Assembly: GCA_030390025.1 (NCBI GenBank)
Contig: CM059432.1
Span: 47,556,001 to 47,620,000, forward strand
Reading direction: 5' to 3'
Length of the DNA: 64,000 nucleotides
From: Squalus acanthias
Taxonomy: Eukaryota
How positions within the stretch are numbered: the first letter of the stretch is position 1; each line of letters begins with the position of its first letter. Under the pieces are notes generated by a model. It did no database searches, was not told the origin of the DNA, and saw nothing but the letters and a program-made list of their open reading frames with translations. This document shows, piece after piece, positions 405-61,459 of the stretch. The translations under genes were made by a program, and so were the position numbers.

Positions 405-3400
405 ATGATCTGGACTTGGATACAGGGTGTACAAATCAAAATTTCCAGATGACACAAAATACGGAGCATGGTTAATAGTGAAGAAGACTAAGTAAATGTA
501 GGAAAACATAGACTGGTTAGTAGATTGGGCAGATAGATAGATGAAGAATAATGCAGAGAAATGTGAGGTAATATATTGGGGGGGGGGAGCATAAAGAGGG
601 GAAGAATATATGGTAAAACCTTAAAAGGAATAGAGGAGCAAAGAGATTCAGGGATTCAGATGCACAAACCTTAAAAGGGTAGTTTAAATTGATCAAGTTA
701 TAAAACAAGCAGGGATCTTGGGTTTTGTAAGTAGGGATATAGAGTACAAAAGCAAAGAAGTAATGCTAAACCTATATAAATCATTTGTTAAGCTATCGTT
801 AGAACATTGTTAAGCTATCGTTAGAACATTGTGTCAGGTTTTGGTCACCTTACTTTAAGAAGGATGTGAAGGTCATGAAGAAGATTCAGAAGAGATTCAC
901 TAAGAAGATACCAGTGATGAGAGGCCTTAGCTATGAGGTACTTAAAGAAACTGGGAGTCATGTCACTAGAAGAATGAAAGTTAAGAGATTTCACAGTGGT
1001 ATTCAAAATTGAGAGGTTTTGACAAGATAAATCAGGAAAAATTATTTCATTGGTCAATGAGTTGGTAACTAGAGAGCATAAATTTAAGATAATCACTAAA
1101 AGAATCAAAAGGACAGGTTGCAACATTTTTTTTATGTAGAGGATTGTTAGATCATGGAATGCTCTACCAAAAGTGGTGAAGGTAAATCCATAATAGCTTC
1201 TAAGAGAGTGGAATATATGAAATAGAAAAAATTAAGAGAGTATAGGGAAAGGGCAGGAGAATAGGGCTAAGTGGATAACTCTTTCAGAGAGCAAAAGTGT
1301 GAGGGGGTGATTGGCCTCCTTCTATATTGTAAAATCCTATGATTCTATTCTGTATATATAAAATAATTAAATTGCATACATAACATGAACCTAGAATATT
1401 ACTTTAAAGTGAATTAAGATCAATAGAACTTATGGACATAAATTTATATTAGTAAATTGCAAATTTAAACAGATCTTAGGAAAAACTTAGTTACTCAAAA
1501 AAATTACACACATTTGGAATTATATACTAGGTAAAGTAATGGAATCAAAGACATCCAGGATGTTCAAGATGCAGTTGGATGCTCGGCTCGGTGAGTTGAA
1601 ACACTAGAGGAACATCTTCAATGGGCCAAATGGCTTTTTCTTGTCCTTTACTTTTTCTTGGATTTTAAACTTTATTTGGTTTATTTTTCTTGATTATGGA
1701 TTTGAACACTGTCAACGTAGATGTAGATATAATCCTGGAAATAATAAGGAATCTCAAAACAGATTGGACTGCAGGTTCCGATCGCATTACCCAAGGGTAA
1801 TTAAAGAGAGGGAAGCTGTGCTCTGTGAGCCCCTTGATTATATATTTAGCAGATCACTAGGGTCAAGGATTGTTGCCATGGACTGGAGGGAGGCTCATGT
1901 TATCCCAATATTCAAAAAGTAAGAAGCGAGAAATTATAGGCCATTAGCTCGATTTACAGGCAAGTTGCTAGAAGGAATCATTAGAAATACTGTGTATGAC
2001 CACCTGTGATGTGGACTGGGGTGGACAAATGTGAGAAGTCGCACAACACCAGGTTATAGTCCAACAGTTTTATTTGAAATCACAAGCTTTCGGAGCGCTG
2101 CTCCTTCGTCAGGTGAAGTCCACCTGGACAGAGATGGGGTTATAAGAGATTCTCAACATGGCTTCTGGAAAAGGTGGTCATGTCTTACCACCCTGATTGA
2201 AAATTTTGAGGAAGTTACGCATTGGTGGATGAAGGCCACTTGACATCATATACTTGGATTTTCAAAAATCTTTCGATAAGGTGCCACACAATATGCTACA
2301 TGATATCATAAGAGTCCAGTGGGACTCGAGGACAGACCTTAAGTTGGATAAGAAATTGGCTACATTCTCATAGGCTGATGGTTGTTATTAATGGTAGTGA
2401 TTCTGCGTGGAGATCAATTATTAGTGATGTTCCGCAGGGCTCAGTATTAGGACTGTAGCTCTTCACAATTTGTACTAATGATGTGGATGAAAGCGTTAAG
2501 GGAAACTGTCCACAAATTTGCGTATCATGCAAAGACGTGTGTGTGTTGAGCGGGAAAAAGATGAGATGTTATATTACATGAATCCCTAAATCCCCATCGA
2601 GTTGAATGGGCCTATATTCTCTGAACTTTAGAAGAAAGAGGTGTGATCTCATTGAAACGTCTAAAATTCTTAGAGGGCTTGACAGGTAGATGCTGAGAGG
2701 CTGTTTCCCCTGGCTGGAGAGTCTAGAACTAGGGTCATAGTCTAAGGATAAGGGATCAGCCATTTAGGACTGAGATGAGGAGAAATATCTTCACTCAGAG
2801 GGTTGTGAATCTTTGGAATTCTCTATCCCAGATGGCTGTGGGTGCTCAGTCGTTGAGTATATTCAAGACTGAGATTGTTAGATTCTTGGACACTAAGGGA
2901 ATCAAAGGATATTGGGATAGAGTGGGAAAGTAGGGTTGATGTAGAATTTCAGCCATGATCTTACTGAATGGCGGAACAGGCTCGAGGGGCCGTAGGGCCT
3001 ACTCCTGCTCCTATTTCTTATGTTATGTTCACTACCAGTAGCGAGAGGCTATTGCAAAAGCAAATAGAGTACTAGAATCTATTGCTAGGTAGATCCAATA
3101 TAAAACAAAAACCACTATATTGTCCTCGTGTAAGGCCTCATCTAAAGACTGTGTTCAGTTCTAGTCCCATCACATGGTGGAAGATACAGAGGCTTTAGAA
3201 AAAGTTCAGAGGAGGCCATTACATTGATACCTAGCATAAGAATTCTTTTCTTTCCACAAAGGGTCATCAATCTTTGGAACAAGTTGCCAGCTTGCGTAGT
3301 GAGTGCAGATTCACTGCAAGCATTCAAAAGGTAGTTGGATGAGTTCCTGACCTTGGCAGATATTGCAGCATATAAAAAGCAGGTGGATTATTGAGCGATG

Positions 3401-5522: not shown

Positions 5523-5693
<171 letters not shown>

Positions 5694-20144: not shown

Positions 20145-22620
20145 ATAGAATCACAGATTCTTACAGCACAGAAGGAGGCCTTTCGGCCTGTAGCACCTGT
20201 GGCAGCTCTCTGAAAGAGCTGTCCAATTTAGTCCCACACCCCATCTTTTTCCCCACATACCTGCAAACTAGTCCTCTTCAAGTACATGTCAAATTGCCTT
20301 TTGAAAGTTCCTATGGGATCTGATTCCACCACCCTTTCAGGTAGTGCGTCCCAGATCTTAATATCCCTCTGTGAAAAAATCTCTGATTTCCCCTCTAGTT
20401 CTCTTGCCAATTATTTTAAATCTGTAGTTTAAACCGACCCACTTACCAGAGGAAATTGTTTTACCCTTCTTGCTCTATCAAAACCCCTCATAATTTTGAC
20501 TACCTCTATTAGGTCTCTCTTAACCTCCTCTGCTCTAAGGAGAACAATCCCAGCTTCTCCAATCTCTTCACATAACTGAAGTCTCTCATCCTGGTAAACC
20601 TCCTCTGTACCCTCTCCAAGGCTTTGACATCTTTCCTAAAGTGTGGTGCCCAGAATTGTTCACAATAGTCCAGCTCAGAGATTGTTTTCCCTGGCTGGAG
20701 AGTCTAGAACTAGGGGGCATAGTCTCAGAATAAGGGGTTGGCCATTTAAGACTGAGATGAGGAGGAATTTCTTCATAAGAACATAAGAAACAGGAGCAGG
20801 AGTAGGTCAATCGGCCCCTCGAGCCTGCTCCGCCATTCAATAAGATCATGGCTGATCCAATCTTGGCCTCAACACCACTTTCCCGCTCTCTCCCCATACC
20901 CCTCGACTCCCTTGTAGTTCAAATGTCTGTCAATCTCTGCCTTGAATATATTCAATGACTCCACCTCCACAGCTCTCCGGGGTAGAGAATTCCAAAGATT
21001 CACGACCCTCAGAAGAAATTCCTCCTCATCTCCGTCTTAAATGGGCGACCCCTTATTCTGAAACTATGCCCCCTAGTTCTAGACACCCCCTCTAGGGGAA
21101 ACATCCTCTCAGCATCCACCCTGTCAATCCCTCTCAGAATCTTATATGTTTCAATAAGATCACCTCTCATTCTTCTAAACTCCAATGAGTATAGGTCCAA
21201 CCTGCTCAACCTTTCGTCATAAGTCACTCAGAGGGTTGTGAATCTTTGGAATTCTCTACCCCAAAGGGCTGTGGATGCTGAATCGCTGAGTATATTCAAG
21301 GCTGAGATCGATAGATTTTTGGATTAGAGAGAAATCAAGGGATATGGAGATCGGGTGGGAAAGTGGAGTTGAGTTCAAAGATCAGCCATGATCTTATTGA
21401 ATGGCGGAGCAGGCTTGTGGTGCCGTATGGCCTACTCCTGCTCAAAATTCTTATGTTATTATGTAGCTGAGGCCTAACCAGTGATTTTTAAAATTTTAGC
21501 AGGACTTCCCTGCTTTTGTATCAACCACCTTCAAAGATTTGTGAATATCAAAGTCCAAGGTTCCTCTGCTCTTGCAACCACCTCAAAATAGTACCATTTA
21601 GATTATACTGCCTCTGTTGTTCCTCCCAAAGTGCATCACTTCACACTTAGCTGCGTTAAATTGCATTTGCCATGTGTCTGCACATTTCAACAGTCTGTCT
21701 ATGTTCTCCTGAAGTCTGCTACTATCCTGTTCACTATTTACTACATCGCCAAGTTTTGTTATCATCCACAAACTTCAAAAATTTTACTCCCTATACCCAA
21801 GTCCAGGCCACTTATATGTAACAAGAAAAGCAATGGTCTTAATACTCCTGGGGGACCTCTCTGCATACTTCTCTCCAGTCAGAACAAAATCCATCCACCA
21901 CACTCTGCCTCCTATCCCTTAGCCAATTACATACTCAAGTTACTACCGTCCCTTTAATACCATGTGCTTCTATTTTCTAAATAAGTCTGTTACGTGGTAC
22001 TTTATCAAATTACTTTTTTGTCCACATATATATCTACTGCACTACATTCCTCTCTGTTACTACATCAAGGAACTCAATCAGGTTAGTCAGACATGATTTG
22101 CTTTAACAATTCTGTGCTGGCTGTCCCTTATTAACCCATATTTCTCCCAAGTAAGAATTAATTTGGTCCTTTACAATGGTCACGAGTAATTTTCCACCAC
22201 TGATGTGAGATTGATTGGCCTGTAGTTACCAGGTTTATCCCTCTCCCCTTTTTTGAACAGGGGTGTAACATTTACAATCCTCCAGTCCTCTGGCACCACT
22301 CACATATCCAAGGAGGATTGAAAGATTGTGGTCATTGCTTCTGCTATCTCCACCCTAGTTTCCCTCAGCAACCTAGGATGCATTCCATCTGGACTTGTTA
22401 ACTTTGACTGACGCCCACCTATTTAGTACCTCTTTTCTATCTATTTTTATGCTATCCAATATCTCCACTCGCCCATCCTTTACTGCAACATTAACTTCAT
22501 CCTCATCTTTTGTGAAGACAGATGCAAAGTACTCATTCAGTACCTCAGTCAATCCCTCTGCTTCCACAAGATGATTTCCTTTGTCGCTAATCCAGCCCAT
22601 CATTCCTTTAACTATCCTTT
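20145..22620 (-). mobile_element. Old CR1 fragment hosting two nested CR1 3' ends (20676-21464)
   Basis: CR1 C-terminal and RT remnants on minus; AGCT duplicated at 20672-75 and 21465-68. Confidence 0.82.
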
Positions 22621-24479: not shown

Positions 24480-24980
24480 AAATAAAAACAGAAAATGCTG
24501 GAAATACTCAGCAGGTCAGGCAGCATCTGTGGAGAAAGAAACGGAGGTAACGTTTCAGGTGGATGACCTTTCATTAGAATGGGGAAAATGTTAGAGATGT
24601 AATGCCTCACCCCTTCCCCTCCCTCCCAGAACCATGATAGGGTTCCCCTTGTCCTCACCTTCCACCCCACCAGCCTCCACATTCAACAAATCATCCTCCG
24701 CCATCTCCAGCGTGATCCCATCGCCAAACACATCTTCCCTTCCCCTCCCCTTTCAGCATTCCAAAGGGACCGTTCCCTCCACGACACCTTGGTTCTGGAA
24801 CGGAGGGGAAGGGGTAAAGGGTTACATCTCTAACAGTTTCCAGTTCTGATGAAAGGTAATCGATTTGAAATTTTAATTCTGTTTCTCTCTCTCCACAGAT
24901 GCTGCCTGACCTGCTGAGTATTTCCAGCATTTTCTGTTTTTATTTCAGATTGCCAGCATCCGCAATATTTTGCTTTTGTT
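24480..24980. mobile_element. Second-family PLE-derived fold-back element with decayed hammerheads
   Basis: Inverted arms about 24480-24634 and 24790-24945; centre encodes the PLE linker DRVPLVLTFHPTSLHIQQIILRHLQRDPIAKHIFPSPPLSAFQRDRSLHDTL. Confidence 0.82.
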
Positions 24981-25357: not shown

Positions 25358-26630
25358 ACACACGAATCTCTAACAAAGACGGACACCTCAGCACTTCACT
25401 CTACCGCAAGCCCACGGACAACCTCACGATGCTCCACTTCTCCAGCTTCCACCCTAACCACGTTAAAGAAGCCATCCCCTATGGACAAGCCCTGCGAATA
25501 CACAGGATCTGCTCAGACGAGGAGGAACGCGATGGACACCTACGGACGCTGAAAGACGCCCTCGTAAGAACGGGATATGAAGCTCGACTCATCGATCGAC
25601 AGTTCCGACGGGCCACAGCGAAAAATCGCATAGACCTCCTCAGAAGGCGAACACGGGACACAACCAACAGAGTACCCTACGTCGTCCAGTACTTCCCCGG
25701 AGCGGAGAAACTACGCCATGTTCTTCGCAGCCTTCAACATGTCATCGATGACGACGAACAACTTGCTAAGGCCATCCCCACGCCTCCACTACTCGCCTTC
25801 AAGCAGCCGCCTAACCTCAAAAGTACCATCGTTCACAGCAAATTACCCAGCTGTCAGGAGAACAGCGACCACGACACCACACAACCCTGCCACGGCAACC
25901 TCCGCAAGACATGCCAGATCATCAACACAGATACCATCATCACACGTGAGGACACTACCCACCAGGTACATGGTACATACTCATGTGATTCGGCCAACGT
26001 TGTCTACCTCATACGTTGCAGGAAAGAATGCCCCGCGGCATGGTACATCGGCGAGACCATGCAGACACTGAGACAACGTATGAACGGACACCGCGCAACA
26101 ATCGCCAGGCAGGATTGTTACCTCCCAGTCGGGGAACACTTCAGCAGTCAAGGACATTCAGCCTCGGATCTGCGGGTTAGCGTTCTCCAAGGCGGCCTTC
26201 GAGACACACGACAACGCAAAATCATCGAGCAGAAACTGATAGCCAAGTTCCGCACCCATGAGGACGGCCTCAACCGGGATCTTGGGTTCATGTCACGCTA
26301 CAGGACGTGACTCAACGTCGTTGTCTGGTTCACAGACAGATGCGATTTCCAGTTTTTTTTTTAAAAGTAAAAAGCTTAACTGCAGACTACAGCATTTGAC
26401 ACGTTGGACCCCCTGTGGCCCCACCTCATTGTCTTAGTTGTACTCTGCTGTGTCTTTGATGTAATGCCTCCCTGACGGATTGTATCTCTGCAGAAACATT
26501 GTTCTCTGTCTATATATACTTTGTAACTGATTTGTATTCCCTCACTGTACCTGACGAAGGAGCAGAGCTCCGAAAGCTCGTAATTTCAAATAAAACTGTT
26601 GGACTATAACCTGGTGTTGTGCGACTTCTC
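25358..26630 (+). mobile_element. 5'-truncated Penelope-like retroelement (RT thumb + GIY-YIG endonuclease + 3' pseudo-LTR)
   Basis: Open frame from about 25357 to 26310 with LYRKPTD..LHFSSFHP, then NVVYLIRC..C..WYIGET...LRQRMNGHR...GLN. Flanked by TCAATATAG at 25349-57 and 26629-37. Confidence 0.93.
26548..26582 (+). ncRNA. Minimal type-I hammerhead ribozyme motif in PLE 3' end
   Basis: TAC-CTGACGA-A-GGAGC aga GCTCC-GAA-AGCT-C-GTA. Confidence 0.8.
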
Positions 26631-28485
26631 AATATAGTTCAGCATTCTGTTTGCTTTATTATTTGCTGCTCCATTATACCTCGACATACCAGCATCCCCA
26701 GATTTCTTTCAACCTCAGCTTGAGCTATTTCTACAGTTCATATTGTAATTATGTTGTCGACTTTTTCATTCAATATGTAGTACCCTACACCTGTATTAAA
26801 TTTCATCTGTCAATAGTTCTGCCCATTTACAAATTTTATTGGAACTCTTTTTTGCAGGTACCTTGTTGCTTAACCCCATTTTCATCCTTTCACTAGTTTG
26901 GTATCACCTGCAAACCTATCCACTTTTCATCAGGTTTCTTGAGTGTCCTTCCCCAAAGCACCCACTTATTAGTATTCAATGCTTCCTTTCCATTACCAGC
27001 CTTCTTAAACCCATCTCCCCAGTATGAGGAGCTCATGGAATTGAGTCATTAAAATTGAGACCATTCATTCAGTTCTGCCCCTTCCCCTTGCTCACCAAGC
27101 GAAACTTCCCCTCAGGCTCATCCCTGCTCTAGCCCTGATCTGATGTCTTGCACTAATTTTTCTCCTATCTTCCCTCTTTCCCTCTCTGAGCTCAACTGTG
27201 TCCACGAGACCCACCTCCTGCTCCTGTGACCCCATTCCCAATAAACCGCTGACCACATGGCCCCCATGTTGGCTGACGTTGTAAATGGTTCCCACTCTTC
27301 AGGCACTGTCCCTCACCCTTTCAAAACTGCCACCATCATCCTCCTCAGAAAAACACTATAGACTCCTCTACCCTTGCAAACTACAATCCCACTTCAACCT
27401 CTCTTTCCTCTCCAAAATTCATACCCAACTTTACTGCAACTCCTGGTTTGAATCTCTCCAATCAGATTTACATTCCTGCCCCACAAAATGATACACAGAA
27501 GCAAAAGGAAAAAAAAAGAGAAGCAAGAAACAGAAACAGAGAGGTCACTTTTGGTCACCCCTCCCTCCTAATATCTCCTTCTTTGGCTTGGTATTTATTT
27601 ATTTATGATTCGGATGCTGTTGTTTCTTTCAGCTAGCTCTTTTTCTATTTCCAGATTTCATCTTGAATTCCCACAAAGCATATACATTAACCTTTCATGA
27701 AAAAAGTTGCCAAAGTCTTTTTGGAAGTCTAAATACTTCATGTAATAAGGTTTACCATGGTCTATTTGATATGCCACCTCCTCAAAAAAAGTAAATGGGC
27801 TGAATCTTGACCGGGGCAGGCTGCTTAGGTGGTGGGGGGTGAGTTTCTGTCAGGAAACCTGAATGTCTACTACTATTTACTAGGTTATGATAGATAATCC
27901 TCAGATTTGCTGCTGATAATTGATTCCATGATTTCTTCTGTTACTGACAACACAAAGAAGTCTATAGTTTTCCAGATTTTGGATTACTTCAGTGATTAAC
28001 ACTGCCTATCACAACATAAGTGAATTCACTTATCCATCCCCACAAATCATCCCTGAACAACCATGAGAAATCAGCTAATTATCTACTGCTTTTGTCAATA
28101 TAAGTTGGTTTTGTGTGATATATTAATTCCGAAATTGACAAGCTGCTGTAATTATTGGACATTCTTTACTATTTTAGATATTCACTTCAATAACAATTTA
28201 AAGAACACAGCACATGACTATTACTCTTGAATAATTCAAATGATGTGCCAAAAGCCTCTGTTTCCTACATTATAACAGTGACTACACTTCAAAAGTACTT
28301 CATTGGCTGTAAAGCACTTTGGGACGTCCGGTGGTTGTGAAAGGCGCTATAGAAATGCAAGTCATTCTTTCTTTATGGAAGCATACAGTGAAATATATAG
28401 CAATTAATTGAGTGTATTTTTGCTTCCATTGGACTTAAGGGATCCACATATTTACTTGACAATGGGTTTCCTTACTGGACACTTA

Positions 28486-29193: not shown

Positions 29194-29248
29194 CCCAGCC
29201 AGGTGGTAAAGGGCCAAGAGGATCATTTTCTGCTGATAACATTGAAGC
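29194..29248 (-). CDS. WWP1: WWP1 exon, WW2-3 linker and start of WW3 (55 nt)
   Basis: ASMLSAENDPLGPLPPGW; CAG/GTACG. Confidence 0.94.
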
Positions 29249-29716
29249 CTGTTGAAAATAATATTCACTTTAGTACTTTGCTATCAAAACAACATACATT
29301 ACAATGCGTAGACTGAAGCATCAGCATCACTAACCTCCCGTTCAAGTGCTCCCTGTTTTTCAGCCTAGGCTAAAATTGCTTTGTAACCGTCTACCATGAT
29401 TGGCACAAAGGAAACCCACACTGAGTCACCCTCTAATTCTCCTTGTAGGGAAGCATGTTGCTTGTAATCACCTGGTCGTGATGCAGAATTCATTGCACGG
29501 GCAATGGCAGGTGTGAATCTGACTTCTACTAGTAAGCAGCACAGTGTAAAAAACACTCTTTGACAACTCCATCACGTTGCAAATTTAAGCTTCTAACTAG
29601 AAAAAAAACTTGCTGCTATTATTATTTATGATGCGGAGATGCCGGTGTTGGACTGGGGTGGACAAATGTGAGAAGTCACACAACACCAGGTTATAGTCCA
29701 ACAGCTTTATTTGAAA

Positions 29717-29753
29717 TCACAAGCTTTCGGAGCGCTGCTCCTTCGTCAGGTGA
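29717..29753 (-). ncRNA. Minimal hammerhead ribozyme motif (sense to WWP1 pre-mRNA)
   Basis: Reverse complement TCAC-CTGACGA-A-GGAGC agc GCTCC-GAA-AGCT-T-GTGA. Confidence 0.78.
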
Positions 29754-30297
29754 AGTGAAGAGATACATATCGGCACAGCATATATAGTCAGAGAGCACTG
29801 CCAGATGATTACAGTTAATCTTTCTAACTGCCCTTTATCACACCTTGGCAGAGAGATAATCACGGCAATCAAAGGTGTGGATGGTGTCCAAACAGGTCAG
29901 TCAGGAAAACATTACATCAAAGACAATGAGGTGGGGTCACAAGGGGTCAAATGTGGCAGATGCTGGGGTCTGTATGGAAAACAAAAAACTTTTTTTTGCT
30001 GGAAATCACAGCAGGTCCGGCCGCATCTGTGTAGAGAGAACAAGCCAACGACGACTCAAGTCTGGAGGACTCTACGTCAGGTGGGGTTACATGTAGCGTG
30101 ACATGAACCTAAGATCCCACCTCATTGTCTTTGAGGTAATGTTTTCCTGACTGACCTGTTTGGACACCATCCACACCTTTGATTGCCGTGATTATCTCTC
30201 TGCCGAGGTGTGGTAAAGGGCAGTTAGAAAGATTAACTGTAATCATCTGGCAGTGTTCTCTGACTATATATGCTGTGCCGATATGTATCTCTTCACT

Positions 30298-30334
30298 TCA
30301 CCTGACGAAGGAGCAGCGCTCCGAAAGCTTGTGA
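30298..30334 (+). ncRNA. Minimal hammerhead ribozyme motif (inverted arm copy)
   Basis: TCAC-CTGACGA-A-GGAGC agc GCTCC-GAA-AGCT-T-GTGA. Confidence 0.78.
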
Positions 30335-30515
30335 TTTCAAATAAAGCTGTTGGACTATAACCTGGTGTTGTGCGACTTCTCACATTATTATTTATATTCT
30401 TTGGTATGGTGGGAATGAAGCAAACAAGTCTGGCTATAGGACAGAACCAGTTACTAAACCAGAATATAATTACTATAGAGTATCAATAATTAGCAGGAAA
30501 TGTTTGTGTAAATTA

Positions 30516-30782
<267 letters not shown>

Positions 30783-30835
30783 TCAGAAGCTCTCACAAAC
30801 AGGGACATATAAACAATTCAATCCAATATCACTCA

Positions 30836-30952
<117 letters not shown>

Positions 30953-32658
30953 TTAGGAAAGGTTTTATTCAACTAGTTTACAAATACACAAACTGTACAC
31001 AACTAGGAGATAGAAAGGGGAGTGGAATGTGTGTTTTAGTGAACAGTAACAGGACTAAACAGATAGCTCTTTCAGAGAGCCAGACGCAATGGGCTCTTAT
31101 ATTCTATAAAATTCCACAAGTATCTGTACAGTATATTTTTTATATTTCCTCTCCTCTTCCCGTTTTTAAGTCTCCTGCACCAGTATTTTCCAGTCATTTG
31201 CCAGATGACTTACTCCCAAGACTCTGCCAGTATTAATGTTCATTAAAGGGACAAAAAAAGCTGAAGTGGATTCCTCCCTTTGCTTTTAGGAAAACAACCA
31301 GCCTTCACTCAGTAATTCTCCCAGTGACAAAATTAAGATCAAGGATGTGGGCCCAAACTCACATCTTCCTTCAACAATGTAACCATCAACTTCGTTGGAA
31401 TAAATTATAAAATGTATTTCACATTTAGATAACTTGCCAGCTTTGTGTTCTTTAAAGCAATAGTACTGCAACAATACTACTTCAAATTTCTACAAACTTT
31501 TATAAATTCACAGTTCTCAATACTCATCTTTGATTTAACAGCAAAATACTTACTAGTACAAATTAAGTTTACAACAATAATTTACACTTATGCAGTGCCT
31601 TTAACATAGTAAAATATCCCAAGGTGCATCATGAGCAGATAGAGGGAAATAGATACTGAGCATAAGAGTTAGAGCTTTCAATCCAGATTATCAAACCACA
31701 CACATTACTAGTCTTCAACATTGTAGTACAAATTAAGCTAAATATACTGTGACAATTTTGGTACTGAGTTAAAAACAAATTGGGAGCAGGTAGAGGTTTT
31801 TCATATTTAAGATTTATGCACATATATGGATATAGTTTTAAATAAAGTAGACCCAAACCTCAGATTATTGGTTAAATGCAACCCTAGATGTGAGTGAACC
31901 ACATACCAGGAAGGTTCCAGATTCCATTCCTGGTACCTGCTGAGTTTGCCAAATTCAATCAAATGGCAGTTGGAGTAGCACAGCCGGTCGCATGGTTCTC
32001 AGACAGGTGGAAGGTGGGAGAAGACAGGGGAAACAAACACAAACCGCCAGGGTTCCTATTTTAACTGCTATCCAGTGAGCCCTACAGGAAGTGCACATGT
32101 AGATACAAACTGTGGATGCTGAATACTCACTCTCCAGACTAACAAATAAATACCATTCAAACCATACCCTTGCATGAATCACCACCTTAAGAGAGGCATA
32201 AGGGGAAGTGGTGGGAATCAGAGAAAATATAAAATACAAGAGCCCTTATTACAATACTCAAGCATTGCTAAGGCCCAAAAACACACTGAACCAAAAATTA
32301 TGGAGAATCTACAACCATTACAAAATAGTAAAAATTCTGCAGGTGCATAAGTACAATTTTTTTTTTTAATTAATGTATCTTGAGAGCACCGTGTTCAAAT
32401 TATTTACAGCTCTGTGAATCTAATTTTTTTAAATAATTTTGTACATCATACACTATTTATTTTGGAAAATATGATGCACACATTTTAAAAGCAATGGATA
32501 ATTCAGAAGTGTCAACTGACTCACGTTACTGTTTAATAAAACTAATTTTAAGACAGAAGTATCAAATTTGGATAGGTTCTTTCCATTAGACTCCAATCCT
32601 GTAACAATACTTCTAATGCTAATAGAGAAACAAAGTCAGTCAGTGTTCATGTACTTAC

Positions 32659-50964: not shown

Positions 50965-51695
50965 AACAACAACAACAACTTGTATTTATATAGCACCTTT
51001 AATGTAGTAAAGCGTCCCAAGGCGCTTCACAGGAGTATTAGAAGACAACAAATTTGACACCGAGCCACATAAGGAGAAATTAGGGCAGGTGACCAAAAGC
51101 TTGGTCAAAGAGATAGGTTTTAAGGAGCGTCTTAAATGAGGAAAGACTGGTAGCTGGCGGAGGCAGGGAATCCCAGAGCTTAGGGCCTAAGCAACAGAAG
51201 GCACGGCCACCAATGGTTGAGTGATTTTAATCAGGGATGCTCAAGAGGCCAGAATTTGAGGAGCACAGATATCTCTGGGGGTTGTGGGGCTGAAGGAGAT
51301 TACAGAGATAGGGAGGGGCGAGGCCATGGAGGGATTTGAAAACAAAGATGAGAATTTTGAAATCGAGGCGTTGCTTAACCAGGAGCCAATGTAGATCAGC
51401 GAGCACAGGGGTGATGGGCGAACGGGACTTGGTGCGAGTTAGGACACGGGCAGCCGAGTTTTGGATCACCTCAAGTTTACGTAGGGCAGAATGTGGGAGG
51501 CCAACCAGGAGTGCGTTGGAATAGGCAAGTCTAGAGGTAACAAAGGCATGGATGAGGGTTTCAGCAGCAGATGAACTGAGGCAAGGGCGGAGACGGGCGA
51601 TGTTCGGACTTGGAAATAGGCTGTCTTAGTTATGCTGCGGCTATGTGGTCGGAAGCTCATTTCAGGGTCAAATATGACACCAAGGTGGCGAACAT
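50965..51695 (-). mobile_element. L2 3' fragment
   Basis: Reverse complement of 44690-45355; (CAA)n tail at left. Confidence 0.88.
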
Positions 51696-51992
51696 CCAGA
51701 CATCAAATCCCCTATTTTTCTACATAGCTATATTGCTGCCATGCTGAGTTCAGGTGATTTAGCTGTGTGAAAAAGTAGAAGAAACATCTAAGTCGTTCAA
51801 TAGAAATGATTTCATTTAAAACTAATAAACACTATTCTCATTGAAACACAATCGCACCGCTCCTGTATGGCAGCAGGTTTCACTGCTGTCTCTGAAACTC
51901 AGCACAACCCGCCTTAAAATTGCATGGGGTCATAACTGCGTAGTAGGACTCTGACTTTTGACTATTTATAGGCTCTCGCCTACTTGTCTGCG

Positions 51993-52560
51993 GCAACGCA
52001 CTCCTGATTGGCCTCCCACATTCCACCCTACGTAAACTTGAGGACATCCAAAACTCGGCTGCCCGTGTCCTAACTCGCACCAAGTCCTGTTCACCCATCA
52101 CCCCTGTGCTCGCTGACCTACATTGGCTCCCGGTTAAGCAGCGCCTCGATTTCAAAATTCTCATCCTTGTTTTCAAATTCCTCCATGGCCTCGCCCCTTC
52201 CTATCTCTGTAACCTCCTTCAGGCCGCCCCACCCCACCGCCGAGATGTCTGCGCTCCTCTAATTCTGCCCTCTTGAGGATCCCTGATTATAATCGCTCAA
52301 CCTTTGGTGGCCGTGCCTTCTGTTGCCTAGGCCCTAAGCTCTGGAATTCCCTGCCTAAACCTGTCCGCCTCGCTACCTCTCTTTCCTCCTTTAAGACGCT
52401 CCTTAAAACCTACCTCTTTGACCAAGTTTTTGGTCACCTGCCCTAATTTATCCTTATGTGGATTGGTGTCAAATTTTTTGTCTTAAAATACTCCCGTGCA
52501 GCGCCTTGGGATGTTTTACTACGTTAAAGACGCTATATAAATACAAGTTGTTGTTGTTGA
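51993..52560 (+). mobile_element. L2 3' fragment
   Basis: Same family, (TTG)n tail. Confidence 0.88.
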
Positions 52561-59692: not shown

Positions 59693-60490
59693 TTGGGAAG
59701 CCGCTGTCTTCGGTCCCCACCACAAGCTCCGTGCCCAAGCCATCAACTCCGTCCCTCTCTCTGGCAACTGTCTGAGGCTGAACCAGACTGTTTACAATCT
59801 TGGTGTCGTATTTGACCCGGAGAGGAGCTTCCAACCATATATCCACGCCATTACTAAAAGTGCCTATTTCCAGCTCCATAACAGCATCCGTCTCCGCCCC
59901 TGCCTCAGCTCATCTGCTGCTAAAACCCTCATCATGCCTTTGTTACCTCTAGACTTGACTATTGCAAAGTACTCCTGCCCGGCCTCAATTCTTCCACCCT
60001 TCATAAACTTAAGCTCATCCAAAACTCTACTGCCCGTATCCTAACTTGCACCAAGTCCCATTCAGCTATCACCTCTGGGCTCGCCGACCTCCCGAAGCAA
60101 CGCCATGATTTTAAAATTCTCATCTTTGTTTTCAAATCCCTCCATGGCCTCGCCCCTCCCTATCTCTCTAACCTCCTCCAGCTGTACAACCCTCCACGAT
60201 ATCTGCGCTCCTCAAATTCTGGCCTCTTGCGCATCCCCGATTTTAATCGCTCTACGATTGGCGGCCGTGCCTTCAGCTGCCGAGGCCCTAAGCTCTGGAA
60301 TTCCCTCCCTAAACCTCCACCTCTCTTTCCTCCTTTAAGATGTTCCTTAAAACCTACCTCTTTGACCAATTCTGCTCTAATATCTCCCCATGTGGTGTGA
60401 TGTCAAATTTTGTTTGATAATGCTCCTGTGATGTGCTTTCGGACATTTTACTACGTTAAAGGCGCTATATAAATGCAAGTTCTTGTTGTT
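59693..60490 (+). mobile_element. L2 3' fragment
   Basis: Same family; older fragments also at about 27060-27480, 33230-33535, 46850-47320, 52885-53420 (-), 56840-57150 (-). Confidence 0.82.
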
Positions 60491-61459
60491 TTTCAGTTCT
60501 AGATACCACACTACAAAACAAGTGTGGTCCAACCAATGCATTGTGAAACCTTAGCACAACTTCAGTCAATTTGTATTCTGCTATTCTGGGTATGTAACTT
60601 AGCATTTCTATTAGTTTTTTTTTAATTGCTTTGCTACATTGTATACACATTAAAAGTGATAAGCCTACTATTACAGAGAGATCTATTTCCAATTCTCCTG
60701 AACTCATTTAATGGATTTTTTGTCAATTTTTAAAATCTTATAATATAGTCCTGTGTAGCACCTTGGGACGCTTTACAACAACTTGTATTTATATAGCGCC
60801 TTTAACATAGTAAAATGTCCCAAGGCGCTACACAGGAGTATTTTAAGATAAAAAATTACATTAAATGTGCTATATAAATACAAGTTGTTGTTGGTGTTGG
60901 ATAATTTAGCAACACAAGGTTCCTGGCAATATCACGGTTCAGAAGATAGATTATAGCTGATTGCACCCTGTGCTCCCCTCTCGGGTGGCTCCATGCTAGG
61001 ATTAGGAACTTTCAAAGTGAAGCCCTCAATTACCTTCACTGTATAATCCAGAAGCTGGGGTTGTTCTCCTTGGGGCAGAGAAGGCCAAGAGGAGATTTGA
61101 GAGAGGTGTTTAAAATCATAAAGGGTTTAGATAGAGTAAATACAGAGAAACTGTGTCCAATGGCTGAAGGGTTGATAACAAGAGGGCACAGATTTAAGGT
61201 GACTGGCAAAAGAACCAGAGGCGACATGAGGAAAATCTTTTTTATGCAACAAGTGGTTTGGATTTGGAATGCACTGTGATAGGGTGGTGGATATAGATTC
61301 AATAGTAGCCTTCAAAGTGGAAATGGATAAATACTTGAAGGAGAAATAAAATTGCAGGGATATGGGGAAAGAGCAGGGGATTGCTGGATTGCTCTTCGAA
61401 AGAGTCGGCGCAGACTCGATGGGCCGAATGGCCTCCTTCTGTGCTGTACTATTCTATGA

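Follow-up and report, generated by a model that had tools for sequence, protein, structure and literature searches.

The fold-back found in an intron of WWP1 in Squalus acanthias is almost certainly the inverted insertion unit of a Penelope-like element (PLE). It was analysed within a stretch of 64 kb, referred to here as the window, in which WWP1 is the host gene on the minus strand, with exons placed by tblastn from 58985 down to 5559. The insertion is oriented along the same strand and consists of the last nine codons of the element's ORF, followed by its 3' region and a tail of 35 nt; on the 5' side, the element's end is present a second time, inverted and lacking the tail (Table 1). It is a well-preserved, ordinary unit, as this layout has already been described for PLEs. 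A PLE with an inverted partial pLTR had been proposed in the original prediction, and this holds, since the spacer between the arms ends in the ORF's C-terminus and the layout agrees with published PLE units.

Anatomy and identity of the insertion

The two arms are reverse complements of each other with five mismatches in 271 bp (blastn E = 5e-134), at the paired positions 29678/30373, 29795/30256, 29838/30213, 29846/30205 and 29916/30135. Two of these five differences are CpG transitions. A repeat search extends the match to 29665-29938 and 30113-30386, which gives 274 nt at 98% complementarity and a sixth mismatch at 29936/30115. The spacer between the arms measures 180 nt (29936-30115). The flanking duplication of 12 bp is exact, and its sequence occurs just twice in the window; a shared 12-mer within ±5 nt at the same spacing was found at 36 of 200,000 random window positions. 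Arms, spacer and duplication are thus as originally predicted, while that account had overlooked the tail on the left side alone, the end of the ORF inside the spacer and the further copies elsewhere in the window.

The host intron (29249-30575) is 1,327 nt long, of which 766 nt derive from the insertion. The upstream exon is identical to human WWP1 (PDB 6J1X) at 57 of 58 residues. The distance between its donor (30575) and the right arm is 189 nt, against an earlier estimate of about 190 nt, and 369 nt separate the acceptor (29249) from the left duplication. The insertion does not disturb the frame in which the flanking exons are read. The same intron carries a 12-nt insertion at 30470 in a relative of this organism (relative B, run X6), ~75 nt from the right end of the element.

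Table 1. Features of the insertion and of the neighbouring WWP1 exons, in window coordinates
Feature	Position	Strand	Basis
Downstream host exon of WWP1	29194..29248	-	
Left target-site duplication (TSD), 12 bp, AT-only, begins ATT	29618..29629		
35-nt PLE tail, 3' end of the main copy, missing from the inverted arm	29630..29664	-	
Left arm, formed by the pLTR / 3' region of the 5'-truncated main PLE copy; same sense as the WWP1 pre-mRNA	29665..29935	-	
Minimal type-I hammerhead, sense in pre-mRNA	29717..29753	-	descriptor scan and fold
Spacer: PLE 3' UTR with degenerate hammerhead relic and a stretch like the second family's pLTR	29936..30086	-	
End of the PLE RT/GIY-YIG ORF with its final 9 codons plus stop (DLRFMSRYM*); 5' truncation point of the main copy	30087..30118	-	
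Inversion junction, with CCC/GGG microhomology of 3 bp; 30113-30118 gives 6 bp, including one G-T pair	30116..30118		
Right arm: inverted, 5'-truncated, tail-less pLTR copy; last 3 nt (ATT) common to the duplication	30116..30386	+	
Second, identical minimal hammerhead, antisense in WWP1 pre-mRNA	30298..30334	+	descriptor
Right target-site duplication	30384..30395		
Upstream host exon, WWP1 WW2 domain, donor GTAGCT	30576..30750	-	

An artefact of the assembly or of chimeric reads is extremely unlikely. Inverted units of PLEs are known to trouble assemblers (PMC8557442), and the inversion junction is unbridged among the 32 contig pieces listed, with 32,878 further ones unlisted. However, an assembly fold-back would not combine an exact TSD and a tail on one side only with arms whose five differences include CpG-type decay. 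Moreover, single-copy contigs of runs X1 and X5 (two samples of the same organism, from two studies) span 30363-30990 with 0-1 differences, which indicates that the inverted arm abuts the right flank. These contigs carry 21 arm letters past the duplication, below the 31-letter bridging rule, and one of the two samples may be the source of the assembly itself. The contig comparison covered four of 24 sequencing runs and the region 29939-30990, with one arm only.

The assignment to a PLE family is based on the ORF end and on a sister copy at 25358-26628. The latter has a 324-aa open frame with 91% protein identity to P0001, a protein of Heptranchias perlo with an RT domain (PF00078), and P0001 terminates in DLGFMSHYM, compared with DLRFMSRYM* at the ORF end of the fold-back. 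Searched against Pfam, this 324-aa fragment returned no family. Judged from the last nine codons and from the likeness of the sister copy to P0001, the parent ORF would encode an RT and, C-terminally, a GIY-YIG endonuclease. P0001 contains a C-x4-C-x2-C linker and a C-x3-C..H..H motif, matching the CX2-5CxxC linker and the CCHH motif of the Neptune and Nematis clades, whereas the sister copy in the window has lost one linker cysteine. Neptune is the likely name of the parent family, as this is the linker-bearing clade reported in vertebrates.

The remaining hallmarks of a PLE are also present. The main copy is 5'-truncated, leaving the ORF at 30118, and loose ends of family contigs are found behind 30118. 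An inverted, 5'-truncated copy (30116-30386) adjoins its 5' end, a tail of 35 nt (29630-29664) is present at one end only, and the TSDs are short and of variable length, with 12 bp in the fold-back and 7 and 9 bp in two sister copies. The family is abundant, with 10,897 contigs of run X1 on 1 kb. Exact-motif scans of metagenome contigs gave 0 loci.

Two other classes of elements were considered and rejected. In MITEs and foldback DNA transposons, terminal inverted repeats abut the TSD at both ends, without retroelement sequence. Here, the left arm and the TSD are kept apart by the 35-nt tail, and the end of a PLE ORF with its 3' UTR makes up the spacer. A non-LTR retrozyme needs at least two tandem direct units, each with a hammerhead; the copies are inverted instead.

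The closest relatives in layout are Pen2a_Av and its kin, as portrayed in Arkhipova 2013 (PMC3846280), which reports PLE units of this layout with 8-10 bp TSDs, and in Craig 2021 (PMC8557442). The inverted truncated copy is located directly at the 5' end in both cases, with microhomology joins, the tail of 30-40 bp (35 here, 31 in Pen2a_Av) is present at one end only, and the TSD is short (12 bp, compared with 8-10 bp there). In contrast, the main copy of the shark unit is cut to 489 nt with nine ORF codons, and at its junction a spacer of 180 nt takes the place of an overlap or palindrome. The host, a shark, and the Neptune/Nematis-type linker of the parent family differ as well.

Formation of the inverted unit

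How inverted pLTRs form is described as undefined in Craig 2021 (PMC8557442). For the shark unit, we give a little better than an even chance to an origin in which reverse transcription was primed from the two ends of a single staggered cut and the resulting cDNAs were joined at CCC/GGG. The GIY-YIG endonuclease would place its nicks in an ATT-rich site, one per strand and 12 nt apart. From the 3' end of the top strand, a cDNA would then be primed at a distal start, including the tail, and would run for ~489 nt, just into the end of the ORF. The 3' end of the bottom strand would prime at a proximal start, without the tail and with AAT common to the template, and would be extended for ~268 nt. 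The joining of the two cDNAs at CCC/GGG and the filling of the gaps would complete the unit.

The junctions are organized as follows. On the left, the TSD continues at its top-strand end into the tail end in complementary form; on the right, its bottom-strand end leads to the pLTR, again as the complement, at the boundary of the tail and with AAT common to the template. Contigs of the PLE family in the sequencing runs depart from the stretch ahead of 30116 and past 30118, which the joined-cDNA reading predicts. Both ends are found elsewhere in the window: a solo copy at 2007-2119, flanked by a TSD, has the tail end, and the solo, TSD-flanked copy at 25358-26628 has the tail-less one, whose end at 26628 is ~4 nt from the end position of the fold-back arm. 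Loose ends were also seen behind 30382, 30383 and 30386 (51, 42 and 67 contigs in X1), with an agreement of ~0.4 and some of them continuing into the tail; they are mixed and are therefore not counted as proof of the tail-less end.

Both arms carry two letters that are in the minority in the family (30280 and 30286), the other letter making up 77% and 81% of the X1 depth, respectively. These common minority letters point to one source lineage and argue against two separate insertions, but fit either two-ended priming or a snap-back of a single cDNA. Two independent PLE insertions back to back are, for this reason, very unlikely, even in a very abundant family with a preference for AT-rich targets. 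In addition, a single TSD encloses both copies, and the inner junction shows microhomology without a second duplication.

The snap-back is a possible origin, but a doubtful one. Here, the first cDNA would have folded at GATCCC/GGGGTC and been copied backwards for ~270 nt, after which ATT homology (3 nt) joined it to the other target end, perhaps following endonuclease cleavage where the tail begins or ends; the masking of the ribozyme would still be a by-product. The self-complementarity of 6 bp (one G-T) within the first cDNA and the minority letters common to both arms agree with this course. Self-priming has also been proposed for PLE inverted repeats in PMC3846280, and the tail is ascribed to endonuclease resolution in PMC8557442. 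By itself, however, the snap-back leaves unexplained why the arm ends at the end of a solo, non-inverted, TSD-flanked copy (26628), and the 180-nt spacer is not the palindromic junction behind the self-priming idea. Two-ended priming and snap-back are inseparable at one locus, as the junction homology and the one-source arms are common to both.

Priming from both target ends is familiar from another group of retroelements. In the 5' inversions of L1 attributed to twin-priming, the 3' ends of both target strands prime, one TSD is formed and microhomology occurs at the inversion point. Unlike the shark unit, which duplicates the 3' end and has no poly(A), L1 inverts upstream sequence and primes at the poly(A).

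A PLE with suitable biochemistry is PAc, the Poseidon element of Anolis carolinensis (Frangieh 2024, PMC11167929). Its protein, a predicted dimer, cuts and extends both strands in vitro with a preference for ATT, and its reverse transcription starts at two sites that bound the tail. PAc resembles the shark family in its ATT-rich target, in the hammerhead upstream of two ends and in the AC-rich tail, in a predicted stem-loop, that these ends bound. It belongs to the Poseidon clade, whereas the shark family has a Neptune/Nematis-type linker, and inverted units are not derived from two-strand priming in that study (PMC11167929); this link is our own inference.

If the preferred two-ended priming applies more widely, PLE fold-backs may be fossils of double target-primed reverse transcription by a dimeric complex. 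That this is both true and not yet in print is offered tentatively. Double priming would explain the inverted pLTR, the one-sided tail and the TSD in one step. In our literature search, such an origin of PLE fold-backs was not found stated; older papers by Evgen'ev and Arkhipova were outside its scope, and the idea may be in print. The fold-back and the two solo copies in WWP1 provide a clean example of both PLE ends and of all three junctions, and the formation of inverted pLTRs thereby becomes testable by junction counts across a shark genome. The single insertion is of little import, being one of very many PLE remnants with no effect on WWP1 shown.

Hammerhead motifs and their masking

A custom-built descriptor of the minimal hammerhead matched five times in the 64-kb window, with two of the matches in the arms (core C3 at 29749 on the minus strand and at 30302 on the plus strand). 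The motif at 29717-29753 has a helix I of 4 bp, a helix II of 5 bp, a palindromic AGCU helix III and a U at position 17. The core, the extra base after A9, G10.1-C11.1, the palindromic 15.2-16.2 and a helix I of 4-5 bp are those of minimal hammerheads. The Rfam models are silent: no hammerhead reached the gathering score in the whole window (0 matches), and at E ≤ 10 the region 29600-30420 gave two chance matches, neither of them a hammerhead. The claim of a hammerhead core in each arm is thus supported by one minimal motif per arm. An identical, complete sense motif is present at 2112, in the intron after the WWP1 exon 5559-5693, and has no nearby partner.

Minimal hammerheads in pairs on opposite strands, 100-700 bp apart, have been described by Cervera and De la Pena 2014 (PMC4209133), and the pair in the shark arms, 553 bp apart, falls within this range. 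The core, the extra base after A9, G10.1-C11.1, the palindromic 15.2-16.2 and the 4-bp helix I are common to both, while helix II is 7-8 bp long in the Schistosoma families of that study and 5 bp in the putative shark motif. Cleavage by a lone minimal hammerhead was undetectable there, and dimers had low activity only. In the anole PLE, the hammerhead needed the protein of the element, and no RNA-seq ends were located at its cut site (PMC11167929). As cleavage by the lone minimal motif went undetected and the anole motif is protein-dependent, the duplex probably has little to mask.

For the two arms, a duplex of 271 bp with -567 kcal/mol is predicted. Over the hammerhead, the predicted pair probability exceeds 0.997 (mean 0.9995), and ~93 kcal/mol would be required to free the motif. 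In the minus-strand pre-mRNA, the antisense arm is transcribed first and, as had been anticipated, could pair with the sense ribozyme; the duplex is predicted to zip up during synthesis. In the plus-strand transcript, 45 of 45 hammerhead nucleotides are predicted to be paired too. Both 3' ends face outward, so that transcription of either strand reaches the antisense arm before the sense one; masking is equal on both, and the orientation consequently bears no mark of selection. The left arm could also pair across an exon with the copy at 26497-26631, but this was discarded as the main structure (-195 kcal/mol, compared with -262 kcal/mol for its own right arm).

It had been suggested that the fold-back neutralises cleavage or affects splicing. 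Such a functional self-masking, in which the hammerhead would cut the WWP1 pre-mRNA and the fold-back would be favoured or tolerated as a neutraliser, or would tune splicing or editing, is improbable. The whole motif does lie inside a predicted duplex formed as the RNA grows, the intron is short with the donor 189 nt away, and heavy editing of dsRNA in sharks is suggested by the elephant shark row in PMC5625713. Yet the duplex masks equally on either strand, and the identical sense motif at 2112 is tolerated unmasked. The arms have drifted like neutral DNA, with CpG transitions among their differences. The U at position 17, furthermore, makes a weak cleavage triplet. For splicing, the donor and acceptor regions show no predicted pairing with the element (p < 1e-6), and no exon is located between the arms. 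The lack of cleavage by a single minimal motif (PMC4209133) and the behaviour of the anole motif (PMC11167929) likewise count against the idea. Neither suggested effect is supported.

From the strand symmetry, the unmasked motif at 2112 and the non-cleavage of single motifs, the masking is most likely a by-product. We are highly confident that it has no function for the host and merely accompanies the fold-back. Selection for self-masking ribozymes in introns is correspondingly hard to credit. If true, it would be the first sign of minimal PLE hammerheads cutting host pre-mRNA in vivo; the evidence opposes this.

The arm duplex is a plausible candidate for ADAR editing, by analogy with other intronic inverted repeats. 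The arms in the WWP1 pre-mRNA would form a 271-bp duplex, a likely ADAR substrate that would be removed with the intron. The long, nearly perfect duplex within one pre-mRNA, obtained here by computation alone, resembles the edited intronic inverted repeats that Porath 2017 (PMC5625713) describes; the shark fold-back differs in being known as a predicted duplex. It is one of six close inverted pairs (<3 kb apart) in this gene region. For Dicer, which the original prediction also named, the analysis yielded no support. None of the 24 sequencing runs is recorded as RNA. In run X14, guessed to be RNA, the WWP1 exons and the flank are uncovered, and the kinds of changes listed equal those of the DNA runs. 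The arm itself attracts contigs that stem from thousands of copies.

Age and other repeats in the window

The arms diverge by 1.9% (5/268; 95% interval 0.6-4.4%). With the rate of the epaulette shark, 7e-10 per site per generation (PMC10587355), the insertion would be about 13 million generations old, an estimate with a borrowed rate and a wide interval that assumes arms identical at the start. The WWP1 intron of this organism differs from that of relative B by 3.4% (9/265), which is not significantly different from the arm divergence (P = 0.11). The contig of relative B aligns from 30397 only, leaving 43 letters unaligned. No empty allele was seen in the contigs of X1 or X5, which drop variants. 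The element had been called young; this is right relative to older repeats of the window but not in absolute terms, given the 1.9% divergence and the outer junction present in two samples. The insertion is younger than most repeats of the window, yet probably not recent.

Further PLE copies are present in the window. The 113-bp solo copy at 2007-2119 (minus strand), inserted in a LINE-like fragment, has a 7-bp TSD and a tail with a 15-nt deletion; its hammerhead is intact, unmasked and sense to WWP1. The tail-less, 5'-truncated copy at 25358-26628 (plus strand) has a 9-bp TSD and an open RT-thumb/GIY-YIG frame of 324 codons, and the middle of its pLTR is unlike that of the fold-back. WWP1 also contains, at 24480-24945 within the interval 24480-24980, an older fold-back from a second PLE family. 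Its arms of 155 bp match at 85%, its hammerhead cores are decayed, the right side has an extension resembling a tail, and there is no clear TSD.

In the spacer of the main fold-back (29949-30085, minus strand), a degenerate hammerhead relic (about 30035-30085) directly follows the ORF stop and is itself followed by a stretch with ~74% likeness to the pLTR end of the second family (24886-24970). The 3' UTR of the fold-back family looks like a composite of two pLTRs, as far as its sequence tells.

Pieces of the ORF of the fold-back's PLE family, 75-88% identical, were also found in the annotated shark host proteins P0005, P0010, P0012 and P0014 (NOXP20-like, septin 5a, XRCC5 and PPP1R12A-like isoforms). 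These are either exonised fragments or annotation artefacts. Within the WWP1 introns, inverted pairs at 50967-52559, 20673-21466 and 60400-60861, apparently of LINE type and the largest with 566 bp at 89%, represent potential dsRNA.
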